Positions 514 through 4,217 of a stretch of 4,217 bases of DNA are shown here, piece by piece. The stretch lies in the IMG/VR virus record IMGVR_UViG_2609459830_000018, positions 1-4,217 of that record; one strand, written 5' to 3'. Numbering within the stretch: position 1 is the first letter of the stretch; each line of letters begins with the position of its first letter. The notes under the pieces were generated by a model. That model did not search any database. It saw only the letters and a program-made list of their open reading frames with translations, and was not told where the DNA came from. The stretch comes from a virus (Duplodnaviria; Heunggongvirae; Uroviricota; Caudoviricetes). Made by a program: the position numbers and the translations under genes.

Positions 514-840
514 TCAGGGTGCAGAAGGACTAAAGATAAACGTTTTCTTCACGCCTTTACGCGGCCTGTCCTTCTCAAATCGCCATTTTGCCATCGCCTT
601 TACAACCTGCTCATCAAACAGATGGTGCGGCTCTGAACGGATAAACTCAATTCGGGTGACAGTACCATCAGCACCAATATCAAACTTCACATCAACCCGT
701 CCCTTTATATAATTTGCCGCTGCATAGGCCGGATATTGTGGTAATGCCTTCACCAATTGTCGGGGCATATCTGTTTTATGTTGCGTACAGCCCATAACCA
801 GAGAAGACAACAAAATAATTAACGGAAGATTTCTTTTCAT
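514..840 (-). CDS. Outer-membrane lipoprotein consisting of a TonB C-terminal-domain-like fold (about 108 aa)
   Basis: Minus-strand ORF. N-terminus MKRNLPLIILLSSLVMGC has a basic n-region, hydrophobic core and lipobox-like VMGC with Thr at +2. The mature part ...LPQYPAYAAANYIKGRVDVKFDIGADGTVTRIEFIRSEPHHLFDEQVVKAMAKWRFE matches the remembered TonB_C motif pattern (YP..A....I.G.V.V.F.I...G.V.......S.......D..V..A...WRF). Start chosen at ATG 840 (GGGAA 5 nt upstream); in-frame alternatives are ATG 846 and GTG 855. Confidence 0.65.
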   Translation of the reverse strand: MKRNLPLIILLSSLVMGCTQHKTDMPRQLVKALPQYPAYAAANYIKGRVDVKFDIGADGTVTRIEFIRSEPHHLFDEQVVKAMAKWRFEKDRPRKGVKKTFIFSPSAP

Positions 841-877: not shown

Positions 878-1178
878 AACAATGCCACCCTGTCGGTCAT
901 CAATCCTCTGCTTGATGGCAACGACAATTATCCGACTTAAATCACAAATCAGACACATAACAGGGCTTGCGAGGTAACACATCGTCCGGCTTCTTCCACC
1001 ATCGCACCGGACAGGCGACTATGAGGGGCAACGCCGCGCTCCGTTAACGCGGTAAACCCCGGTGTGTATCGTTTTTGATTATCCCCGCACACTCGCGAAG
1101 AGGAGTCTCCCGGTCGGGCTGCGGTCTCTGTTAATGCGGGAATACGGCGACAATACCGCGCATGGATAATAAGGTCGC

Positions 1179-1403
1179 TCAACACACTGGCTGTAATGCA
1201 GCGGATACCATGCGGCATTTAGCGGCATTCATCGTACACTCAACGGTTAGCTCTTCATTCGTGGCATTCACCTGAAAGGTCCGGGAGTGTAATTGCGTAC
1301 ATTTACCACTGAACGAACCTTCAACAAGAACACGACCACGCTGCAAAATACGGAACAGAATTGTTCCCTGAAAAGGCTTTACGGTTACCAGTAATTTCTT
1401 CAT
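1179..1403 (-). CDS. Hypothetical 74-aa protein, translationally coupled to Rz (ATGA overlap)
   Basis: ATG at 1403..1401 overlaps the Rz TGA stop (1402..1400). GGAGGA sits immediately upstream. No hydrophobic segment and no domain I recognise. Confidence 0.45.
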
Positions 1404-1900
1404 ATATCCTCCGGATAATAAAAAGCCAGCTTAGTGCACTGAGTGCGGATATATTCCTGCGCCCCTTCCAGCTGCTTCTGCATTGTCATCAACCGTTCTC
1501 TGAGGATGAAATAATCCCGTTCAGCGGTGTCTGCCAGTCGGGGGCCGGTTGCATTATCCACGCCGGAGGTGGTGGGGGCTTCACGCACGGAGCCTGGACA
1601 GGTGGCGTTGATCCGCAGGCGCTTACGACCAGCGGCAACGTCAGCGCGAAGAGTTTCATTTTCAGCTCTCGCATCGGCTAATTCCCTCGAGTATTTTGCA
1701 TCGAGCGCAGCAACATCGCGCTGGCGCACCTGCATATCAGTAATGGTTGCGTTCGCCAGCTTCAGTTCACTGGCTTTGTTATCGCGCTGCGCTTTGTAGG
1801 TAATCGCGTTATCACGGTAATGGTCTGTTGCCATCCACAGCGCACCACAGGCCACCAGCAGAATAACGATAAACGCGGAAAGCATTCGGTTTATGTTCAC
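1400..1900 (-). CDS. Rz: i-spanin (Rz), inner-membrane spanin subunit
   Basis: Translation ...[45 protein letters not shown]...VAAGRKRL...[34 protein letters not shown]... is near-collinear with lambda Rz as I remember it. N-terminal TM segment present. GTG start at 1900 overlaps the upstream ORF's TGA (GTGA); ATG 1885 is an alternative. Confidence 0.9.
1489..1674 (-). CDS. Rz1: o-spanin (Rz1), outer-membrane lipoprotein, embedded in the +1 frame of Rz
   Basis: Translation [61 protein letters not shown] has a lipobox (VSAC) and the proline-rich [26 protein letters not shown] core characteristic of lambda Rz1. It lies entirely inside Rz in another frame, the classic embedded architecture. Confidence 0.9.
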
Positions 1901-2028
1901 CCCAGCAGCCCCGACGAAGACAACATCATCCAGGCCATGGAAAGAAAAAGAGCAACCAGCATTAGTGAAAATGAAATGCCGACAATTACACAGAGGATCT
2001 TCGCCAGCGTTATGAGTTTGTCTGACAT
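1897..2028 (-). CDS. Small single-pass membrane protein (43 aa), function unknown
   Basis: ATG 2028..2026 is preceded by a strong SD (GGAGGA, 6-nt spacer). The stop TGA overlaps the Rz GTG start. Product [43 protein letters not shown] is dominated by one hydrophobic helix. Confidence 0.55.
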
Positions 2029-2258: not shown

Positions 2259-2296
2259 AAAACCCCGCTTGGTGCCAACAAACGGGGTTTTTACTT
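2259..2296. terminator. Bidirectional rho-independent terminator between the endolysin gene and the small membrane protein genes
   Basis: AAAACCCCG (2259-2267) pairs with CGGGGTTTT (2283-2291), with an inner TTGG/CCAA pairing. It is followed by a T-run on the plus strand (TTTTTACTTTTATT) and on the minus strand (TTTTGTGTTTCT). Confidence 0.6.
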
Positions 2297-2951: not shown

Positions 2952-3509
2952 CTAAATACGCACTTTAAGATAAGTCAGCCCCGGATGAAGCCAGTAAGCC
3001 GGCACTTTTTTAAAGGGGGGAGTATTAAAATCACGAAGAAGAGCCTCCCGCACAATTGCATCCTTATCAGCACCACTGGCCAGCGCTTCAATCTCAGCGG
3101 CTACCTGAAGATATCCCATGCAACGGCCAACGCGCTTCATCAGCCCCTGCTTTTTATTGTTCTTCAGGTAATCAATGGCAAATTCAATGAGCTCCTCACT
3201 GTGCTGGTGCAATGGAGGTGTTACTTTCCCATTTTCTGAGATGGTTATTTTCCCGGCATCACCGGATACAACAAAGGATGGCCGGTTACACTCCCATTCC
3301 AGGTTACTGAAATTATCATTATGAATACTGAAACACTCTGAGAGATTTCTGCTCATCACTTTCCGACAATAATCGTCAAACGCAGCAAACTGCTCATCGC
3401 GGCGTTTTTTTTCATCTTCAGAAGGCATCAGCGTCGACAGTTTTTTATTCAGTTCAGCAATTTCATTTTCCAGACGACTGAAGCGCTGATTCATTTCTTC
3501 ATGGTTCAT
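2952..3509 (-). CDS. Hypothetical soluble protein (about 185 aa) inserted between holin and endolysin genes
   Basis: ATG 3509..3507 has GGGGAG 8 nt upstream. The ORF begins 4 nt after the holin stop and ends 36 nt before the endolysin start. N-terminal about 45 residues are charged and heptad-like (coiled-coil-like). No TM segment or signal peptide by eye. No family recognised. Confidence 0.6.
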   Translation of the reverse strand: MNHEEMNQRFSRLENEIAELNKKLSTLMPSEDEKKRRDEQFAAFDDYCRKVMSRNLSECFSIHNDNFSNLEWECNRPSFVVSGDAGKITISENGKVTPPLHQHSEELIEFAIDYLKNNKKQGLMKRVGRCMGYLQVAAEIEALASGADKDAIVREALLRDFNTPPFKKVPAYWLHPGLTYLKVRI

Positions 3510-3512
3510 CAC

Positions 3513-3719
3513 CTAATCTCCCCGGGCAGCCTTGCGACGGTCCTCTCTGATTTTGAAATACAGGTTAGTCAGATACGTCAGCAGGCCAAACAGCAGACTC
3601 CCCAGCACACCTATCGCCACCCACTGGGACGGAGAGACTTTGTCCAGCAGCTGCAGTAACCAGTATCCCGTCCCCACCGCTGACGTGGTGTATGACACAC
3701 CCGTTGTGATTTTTTCCAT
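3513..3719 (-). CDS. S: Class II holin (pinholin), phage-21 S-like
   Basis: Product [68 protein letters not shown] (68 aa, two hydrophobic segments, charged C-tail) is near-identical in pattern to the S21/EssD pinholin as I remember it. Sits directly upstream of the lysozyme and spanins. Confidence 0.85.
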
Positions 3720-3863: not shown

Positions 3864-3872
3864 CCCCCCCCC
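3864..3872. repeat. Homopolymeric C9 (G9 on the coding strand of the late operon) tract in the late leader
   Basis: Nine consecutive C residues read directly from the sequence, between the candidate late promoter and the tR'-like terminator. Confidence 0.9.
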
Positions 3873-3880
3873 TGATTCAG

Positions 3881-3907
3881 GTTATAAATGACACAATATC
3901 TTGACAA
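3881..3907 (-). promoter_or_regulatory. Candidate late promoter (pR'-like): -35 TTGTCA (3907..3902), -10 TATAAC (3886..3881), 15-nt spacer
   Basis: Best sigma70-like hexamer pair on the minus strand between the upstream ORF and the tR'-like terminator. The spacer is short, so the assignment is weak. Confidence 0.25.
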
Positions 3908-3977
3908 CACCCATCACTGTCTGTCAGAAAATGTACTGCCAGATATAAGTATCATGTGAAACCCAACTATCCTTCTT

Positions 3978-4020
3978 AGCCAGTACTTCTCCGACGAAAG
4001 TCAGTACTGGCTGTTTTTTT
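3978..4020 (+). terminator. Plus-strand rho-independent terminator facing into the 3' end of the upstream minus-strand ORF
   Basis: AGCCAGTACT (3978-3987) pairs with AGTACTGGCT (4003-4012), a perfect 10-bp stem with 15-nt loop, followed by G+T7 (4013-4020). The minus-strand side lacks a T-run. Confidence 0.5.
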
Positions 4021-4021
4021 A

Positions 4022-4217
4022 TTATGCTGCCGGTGCATTTATCTCCAGCACCAGACTTTCTATCTCAACGCCATACGCTGCATTTTTTGTAACATCCGTC
4101 AGCGTCAGCGCATTCAGCCCCAGTGTCAGACTGTCTTTTATAACCTGGAATGCCGGGCCAGCCACTCCATTCAGTTTCGGAGTAACCGTGGCACTGCCGG
4201 CGGTGAACACCAGCTCC
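4022..4217 (-). CDS. 3' end of an unidentified protein-coding gene (continues beyond the right edge of the window)
   Basis: Minus-strand frame is open to the window edge, ending ...ELVFTAGSATVTPKLNGVAGPAFQVIKDSLTLGLNALTLTDVTKNAAYGVEIESLVLEINAPAA with stop TAA at 4024..4022. Composition is protein-like and rich in small/beta-favouring residues. It does not look like a Cys-rich Q antiterminator tail. Confidence 0.4.
   Translation of the reverse strand, partial: ELVFTAGSATVTPKLNGVAGPAFQVIKDSLTLGLNALTLTDVTKNAAYGVEIESLVLEINAPAA

Follow-up and report, generated by a model that had tools for sequence, protein, structure and literature searches.

What does a 74-codon open reading frame encode whose start codon overlaps the stop codon of the spanin gene Rz, and does this position make it a lysis gene? 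The ORF lies on the minus strand at positions 1179-1403 of the window, the whole 4,217-nt stretch of Caudoviricetes DNA analysed here (IMG/VR record IMGVR_UViG_2609459830_000018), with its ATG at 1403-1401 and a TGA stop at 1181-1179 according to the ORF list and the sequence. A previous sequence-only reading had noted that the ATG overlaps the Rz stop as ATGA with GGAGGA just upstream. Both signals are present on the minus strand, the ATGA at 1400-1403 and the Shine-Dalgarno sequence at 1407-1412, which lies 3 nt before the ATG and inside the extended Rz frame. That reading took the overlap as a sign of coupling and the ORF as the last gene of the lysis operon. We instead favor the view that the ORF is an exchangeable cargo gene of the late operon and not a lysis protein, with a probability of roughly 55%.

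The 74-aa product is already known in RefSeq and PHROGs as a hypothetical protein of unknown function. RefSeq WP_000735651.1 ('hypothetical protein') is identical to it and is annotated in E. coli PS1Thumoskin9, where window positions 900-2000 recur with 100% identity, and the PHROG_2571 profile HMM gives a significant match (E 1.6e-27, residues 1-73 on profile positions 100-172) that places the protein in this family. Pfam, NCBIfam and PADLOC, the latter covering defence systems only, hold no family for it. The earlier description of a protein with no recognisable motif is accurate for Pfam and NCBIfam, but the protein belongs to PHROG_2571 and is annotated in RefSeq. Literature searches by accession, lysis cassette, Stx phage, prophage sRNAs and anti-defence returned nothing on the ORF or on the conserved element that follows it.

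The ORF is preceded by a lysis cassette on the same strand. An S21-type holin gene (pinholin, 3513-3719) is followed by a 186-aa ORF (2952-3512) matching phrog_1085 and phrog_36381, both of unknown function, and by the gene for a Phage_lysozyme-family endolysin (2382-2915) whose N-terminal hydrophobic stretch resembles a SAR domain by eye. A strong terminator-like hairpin with a 13-bp stem and a T-rich tail is located just after the endolysin gene (2259-2291, minus strand). Two small minus-strand ORFs matching phrog_1115 and phrog_4906 (2043-2258 and 1897-2118), the latter of which looks hydrophobic, precede the i-spanin gene Rz (1400-1885, minus strand, RefSeq start, 'lysis protein'; Pfam Phage_lysis, E 3.4e-49; stop TGA at 1402-1400), in which the o-spanin gene Rz1 is embedded (1489-1674, minus strand; Pfam Rz1, E 1e-21). 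Parts of this region vary among prophages. In closely related prophages a YdfR-family gene replaces the 186-aa ORF, residues 13-61 of which (the N-terminal helix) are 67% identical to the C-terminal helix of P0062, a remote relative of the 74-aa protein, and an antirepressor gene is found in place of the two small ORFs in related prophages.

Several features are also located beyond the ORF. A lipoprotein gene with a TonB C-terminal domain (514-840, minus strand; Pfam TonB_C, E 5.8e-15; lipobox LVMGC) follows on the same strand, and in relatives the late operon runs on into the terminase genes after the ORF region, so that the ORF does not close the lysis operon as the sequence-only reading had proposed. 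The only signal near the lipoprotein gene is a promoter-like site with an extended -10 (TG) at 900-873 on the minus strand. RefSeq names the product 'TonB family protein' whereas the PHROGs family is called 'Rz-like spanin', which is probably a mislabel. The gene may be a moron that is active in the lysogen and disturbs TonB-dependent uptake of phages or colicins. At the window edge (1-280), a 68-aa plus-strand ORF (74-280) resembles the C-terminal part of an IS3-family transposase, as read by eye from its translation, and more transposase-like sequence enters from the edge beside it. This suggests an IS insertion in the window copy just beyond the TonB-like gene because the otherwise identical prophage in locus L001 carries a YlcI/YnfO gene there. 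An Rfam scan of the whole window with E-values up to 1 gave two chance-level matches elsewhere and none at the ORF or at the conserved element.

The 74-codon ORF is a real gene under purifying selection. Open frames of this length are unremarkable in the window, which contains 20 stop-free stretches of at least 74 codons compared with about 10 in shuffles, and the case for more than chance therefore rests on conservation. The median dN/dS, computed on six representative sequences, is 0.27 in the ORF frame (range about 0.27-0.34), whereas the two alternative sense frames give 1.29 and 0.76. A value as low as that of the ORF frame is obtained for one antisense frame, as expected from the coincidence of wobble positions, but this frame is not open. 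Variable sites in the same six sequences are distributed 17/14/30 over the three codon positions. Copies of the ORF are open in all 155 fetched loci (68-89 aa), with length differences that are multiples of 3, and every one of the 104 distinct sampled contexts holds an open copy; some copies start with GTG in place of ATG. A purine-rich Shine-Dalgarno-like run precedes the start by a few nt in 52/52 distinct upstream sequences listed, and this run is GGAG except in two variants with GGGGG and GGAAG. Loss of the frame among relatives had been named beforehand as the outcome that would speak against a gene. The reverse was found, and the Shine-Dalgarno sequence together with the retained frame bears out the notion of a genuine same-strand protein gene.

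The gene is widely distributed. Of 5426 complete E. coli genomes, 1244 contain its DNA, in as many as six copies each, and all annotations listed for it there are 'hypothetical'. A profile search of 1.8 billion representatives returned 45 proteins with an E-value of 0.001 or lower, which for the most part represent the E. coli protein in fragmentary or elongated form. Distinct relatives among them share 24-41% identity with the query and include proteins whose sources name Salmonella and Yersinia (prophages). Scanning genome contigs with the family alignment gave 36 pattern matches, none of which was confirmed by tblastn, for which reason the protein searches served to establish the species distribution. 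Positions that are invariant or nearly so in the family are M1, K2, V6, F17, Q21, G33, K34 and V45.

It is very unlikely that the ORF persists as a remnant, functionless or in decay, of largely defective prophages and owes its apparent conservation to recent divergence alone. Most E. coli copies are indeed more than 90% identical, the window prophage carries the IS3-family transposase fragment, and damaged alleles exist. A truncated 64-aa allele lacking the last strand is common and occurs on 207 contigs, which indicates that some lineages tolerate damage to the gene, and rare frameshifted singletons of the family (e.g. P0010, P0015 and P0018) include the fusion forms P0010 and P0018, found on 16 contigs and 1 contig. 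Decay is, however, difficult to reconcile with homologues in other genera that at 24-41% identity retain both length and predicted strands, with a confident AlphaFold fold, with substitutions biased to the third codon position and in-frame indels, and with an open copy in all distinct sampled contexts. We also considered the ORF together with an overlapping 89-aa ORF (949-1218, phrog_6954, 'Rz-like spanin') as the remnant of a longer gene. This was rejected because the phrog_6954 match falls on a conserved element that contains 1-nt indels and is mis-annotated in various frames, and because P0010 and P0018, the forms in which the two are fused, are rare frameshift variants.

If the ORF is a gene, the ATGA overlap could reflect a conserved coupling with Rz. 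To address its origin, we compared the 60 nt preceding the ORF in the different loci and counted Rz C-termini per distinct context. In 49 of 60 distinct Rz-linked contexts, Rz ends 22-23 nt before the ORF ATG with QCIK* or QCIN* (...YIRTQCIK*). The overlap is found in the other 11, including the window, all of which read CTG or TTG at the position of this stop; in another 25 contexts, the 520 nt preceding the ORF contain no Rz end. Lambda Rz ends in ...EQCR*, which identifies the short form as ancestral. In the window, CTG at 1427-1429 stands where the ancestral TAG stop was, and the relative L085 has TTG at this position. Because the ancestral stop now reads CTG or TTG, Rz is nine residues longer (LAFYYPEDI, 1403-1429, minus strand) and ends at the TGA that overlaps the ATG. 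The overlap is a lineage-specific by-product of Rz stop loss and not the ancestral arrangement. The two genes share the stop/start overlap of a coupled pair (ATGA, 1403-1400) and lack its conservation among relatives, with 49 spaced against 11 overlapping contexts, so that the earlier interpretation of ATGA as coupling does not describe a conserved design.

Translation of the ORF is most likely driven by its own Shine-Dalgarno sequence, to which the overlap may add termination-reinitiation in the window lineage. RNA folds predicted around the ORF start do not exceed shuffles in stability (z -0.64, -1.02 and +1.48), and the local hairpin predicted over the Shine-Dalgarno sequence and AUG is weak (z -0.64). 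Obligatory coupling via RNA structure was rejected on these grounds. An ATGA overlap combined with a strong Shine-Dalgarno sequence can thus arise from a lost stop codon, and an overlap alone is therefore no evidence of a functional link between genes. In the present case, it says nothing about a link between the ORF and Rz.

The DNA that borders the ORF on its other side indicates what kind of position it occupies. An apparently non-coding element of about 180 nt (985-1165, minus strand), delineated by blastn against the loci and by alignment, starts about 12 nt past the ORF stop and forms the right-hand border of the ORF slot. Its length is about 130-180 nt across loci and it contains the invariant core GAGTGTGCGGG.ATAATCAAAAA.GAT..ACACCGGG. 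The element is present in 398 phage records, with copies that include L160 9459-9621 (Sakai Sp5), L157 7529-7709 and L003 6158-6276 and are 79-95% identical, others included. Annotations of the element read 'hypothetical protein' in some cases and 'Rz-like spanin' in others, and it underlies the phrog_6954 match of the 89-aa ORF. The 1-nt indels in its alignment indicate that it is probably non-coding. A nested hairpin predicted for it shows hardly any covariation, and its stability is ordinary (z +0.09 to -1.98). The element may serve recombination at a module boundary, mark a 3' end or act as a processing signal.

The same element follows bor in Sakai Sp5 and is located upstream of terminase genes in other prophages. 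In Sp5, Rz/Rz1 is followed by bor on the opposite strand, the conserved element and the terminase genes, and in the window it is followed by the ORF and the same element. Since both genes sit between Rz/Rz1 and the same element, the ORF and bor appear to be alternative cargo in one slot after Rz. The lambda region searched contains bor and neither the ORF nor the conserved element. It had been stated before that lambda carries an oppositely oriented bor at the position of the ORF, and this is correct for lambda as well as for Sakai Sp5.

Family members are found both inside and outside of this slot. Close homologues with 55-99% identity occur in E. coli and Salmonella after Rz in lambdoid prophages, beside different head and packaging modules (Nu1/A/W/portal_2 or Terminase_4/TerL/HK97-like) and different holins. 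A family member is located right after Rz in 76 of the 104 distinct contexts, and 67 of the 104, the window lineage included, hold the conserved element. The family also occurs in Stx2c, Stx2a and Stx1a phages. In locus L102, the ORF follows genes for a peptidase-type endolysin and a lipoprotein, both read by eye from translations, with no Rz within 520 nt. All remote homologues found match PHROG_2571, and their positions are diverse. P0100 follows a cassette of holin_8, holin_3_7, a GH108 endolysin and a spanin-like gene, while the 280-aa member P0070 follows Rz and a DUF4406 gene. P0062 and P0091 lie between the Q antiterminator and holin genes, and the Yersinia member P0068 lies in an early region with genes for a Ser/Thr kinase, ParDE, ERF and an integrase. 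P0063 and P0072 are located just upstream of Nu1, where they overlap the end of a 204-aa gene and are followed by a gene with an Acb2/Tad1 hairpin domain. The domain is either stand-alone or fused to unrelated N- or C-terminal regions, as in P0070, P0062, P0072 and P0069. Viral contig L111 carries two tandem paralogues after Rz, a 68-aa stand-alone copy at 3001-3207 and, about 0.9 kb downstream (about 3870-4090), the same domain in a P0070-type 280-aa protein. The PHROG_2571 family is mobile and not tied to Rz.

This distribution bears on the proposal that the ORF is a dedicated accessory or regulator of the lysis cassette that modulates, for example, the pinholin, the SAR endolysin or the cytoplasmic N-terminus of Rz, and that is kept beside Rz because the two proteins work together. 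The frequent position right after Rz (76/104 contexts) would fit such a role. We nevertheless consider it unlikely, as several unrelated holin and endolysin types accompany the family without a constant partner, and members are found upstream of the holin or in the early region. Many prophages with Rz, including lambda and Sp5, lack the ORF, and a 1,101-base query spanning Rz matches 4526 genomes while the ORF is found in only 1244. The 74-aa protein also has no membrane span or signal peptide and therefore cannot reach the periplasmic parts of the spanin. None of the features of lysis proteins (membrane span, SAR or signal sequence, lipobox, muralytic domain) was detected in it, and no Pfam match was obtained. 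The protein is probably outside the lysis machinery. Because the overlap is not conserved and members occur away from lysis cassettes, position is not proof of a lysis gene, and the earlier lysis-gene reading is not supported as it stands, given members away from any lysis cassette and other relatives with no Rz within 520 nt.

A second gene accompanies some members of the family. In 19 of the 104 distinct contexts, the family member is directly followed by a PHROG_4280 gene that starts about 40-80 nt downstream, for example in L003 (5001-5471), L005 (5001-5397), L102 (3001-3481), L165 (5001-5524) and L163 (5001-5534). This gene encodes a protein of about 68-81 aa (MFVE.DLKADPDNQGWVLGW...) with weak similarity to DUF7457. 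The pairing is kept in remote members (25-45% identity) and at different prophage positions, which indicates that PHROG_2571 and PHROG_4280 travel as a mobile pair. The window lacks the partner. The ORF could accordingly be the orphan half of a mobile two-gene module, for example one resembling a toxin-antitoxin or sensor-effector system, that has lost its other half. The spacing, the varied positions and the sequence divergence of the pairs, as well as the toxin-antitoxin genes that are frequent neighbours, are compatible with this scenario. It is nonetheless improbable, since the partner is almost always absent from the 67 contexts with the conserved element, in which the ORF still looks selected. 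In addition, neither protein matches a known toxin, antitoxin or defence model, and a consensus scan found no promoter or autoregulatory feature.

The protein itself is predicted to be an all-beta sandwich of about 8 kDa located in the cytoplasm. AlphaFold2, using only 20 sequences, gave a model with six beta strands and one short helix (pLDDT 89.7, pTM 0.75). Its hydrophobic stretches are too short for a signal peptide or membrane span (Kyte-Doolittle maximum of 0.82 over 19 residues) and the sequence contains no lipobox. The low maximum hydropathy and the predicted soluble fold are consistent with the small soluble protein proposed in the sequence-only reading. A profile search of PDB sequences with the family gave a chance match (E 0.32), and Foldseek returned nothing below E 0.08, with generic beta-sandwich similarities only. 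Membership in a known defence or anti-defence class is not indicated, as neither sequence nor fold matched PADLOC (defence only), Pfam or the PDB. Three further candidates were rejected. Homology to the FNIII-A domain of lambda J or to the tail tip (gpJ) was not supported by hhalign. Cys35 and Cys56 as a functional motif were discarded since both are replaced in remote members, as was a conserved charge, given a pI of 5.0 to 9.7 across the family.

Taken together, we propose the following model for the cargo gene. The ORF would occupy a slot between the last lysis gene (Rz/Rz1) and a probably non-coding conserved element that precedes the packaging genes. It would be made late from the Q-antiterminated pR' transcript together with S, R and Rz, for which the basis is a consensus scan that detected no promoter-like site between 1400 and 1900 on the minus strand, a type of scan from which weak or non-canonical signals could escape. 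With the same limits, it detected no terminator after 1179; a sigma-70 promoter directly upstream and a terminator directly downstream are the marks of a classical moron, which is expressed from the prophage. Ribosomes would start at the Shine-Dalgarno sequence of the ORF itself, while those translating Rz would read nine codons on through this sequence, end on the TGA overlapping the ATG and possibly reinitiate. The protein may act as a binding module with an accessory or host-interaction role for the phage, as suggested by the fusion of the same domain to unrelated N- or C-terminal regions.

What such a role might be is suggested by the neighbours of remote members. Immediately downstream of P0063 and P0072 lies a gene with the Acb2/Tad1 hairpin domain (PF24729, 63 bits against a cut-off of 27). 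These hairpin genes (L169 6314-6598, L170 3316-3600 and L168 863-1147) are located just upstream of Nu1 and have DUF4406, N6_N4 methyltransferase and HicB genes nearby. The three loci are metagenome and sequencing-run contigs on which no lysis gene was identified, and the region just upstream of the terminase gene appears to carry anti-defence cargo in them. Overall, N6_N4 methyltransferase, DUF4406, HicB, HigB and ParE genes are found in the neighbourhoods of family members. Because remote members adjoin an Acb2/Tad1-type gene amid methyltransferase and toxin-antitoxin genes, counter-defence is the most likely specific role among accessory roles, a suggestion that we regard as tentative and for which the Acb2/Tad1 neighbourhood comprises two distinct remote contexts. 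Late expression would set the ORF apart from most known anti-defence genes, which are expressed early. A more speculative proposal is that PHROG_2571 represents a new phage family for counter-defence or host modulation, a minimal beta-sandwich binding module that would act alone or with PHROG_4280. On that proposal, which we hold to be just as speculative in this respect, the family would be located in cargo slots flanking the lysis cassette, next to Acb2/Tad1 sponges, methyltransferases and toxin-antitoxin genes.

As the evidence stands, the ORF is an ordinary conserved hypothetical cargo gene of lambdoid late-operon variable slots. It merits attention as a very common gene that about one in four complete E. 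coli genomes contain and that also occurs in Shiga-toxin phages, where it would be expressed with the lysis genes that release the toxin. New findings of this analysis concern how the ATGA overlap arose, how far the family extends and how mobile it is, its predicted fold, its pairing with PHROG_4280 and its proximity to Acb2/Tad1. Should the family prove to be counter-defensive or host-modulating, it would add a widespread member to the phage accessory repertoire, and the slot between Rz and the terminase genes would be a place to look for more such genes.

The closest positional counterpart among known systems is bor of lambda and of the Stx2 phage Sp5, which is likewise a small non-essential cargo gene in the slot directly after Rz/Rz1 and in Sp5 directly precedes the same element of about 180 nt as the ORF. 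Bor has its own promoter and is expressed in the lysogen. In contrast to bor, which is located on the opposite strand and encodes an outer-membrane lipoprotein according to its annotation, the ORF lies on the strand of the lysis genes, and no lipobox, signal peptide or promoter-like site was found for it. By tblastn it also has no sequence similarity to bor or to the rest of the lambda region searched, and by homology, lipoprotein signal and orientation it falls outside the Bor class. With ATGA-coupled gene pairs, the ORF and Rz share the ATGA and a Shine-Dalgarno sequence inside the upstream gene. Here, however, the overlap stems from loss of the upstream stop and is absent in most relatives, and no stable RNA structure was found that would force coupling.

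At the protein level, the resemblance to XepA of Bacillus PBSX is no better than dozens of generic beta-sandwich matches and involves a matched chain of 276 residues. XepA is an exported two-domain pentamer in a Gram-positive host. The full-length match to PHROG_2571 is of a different kind, although the profile has 291 columns and the 74-aa protein corresponds to the bare domain. The profile is longer because it includes 280-aa proteins, P0070 among them, that carry further regions flanking the domain. Similar to Acb2/Tad1 sponges and other small phage anti-defence proteins, the 74-aa protein is small, predicted to be soluble and encoded in a variable prophage region. Its likeness to the sponges is otherwise one of neighbourhood only, through the hairpin gene that adjoins remote family members upstream of the terminase gene: the window protein is predicted to be all-beta and has no sequence or fold similarity to them, whereas the Pfam domain of the neighbour is a hairpin.
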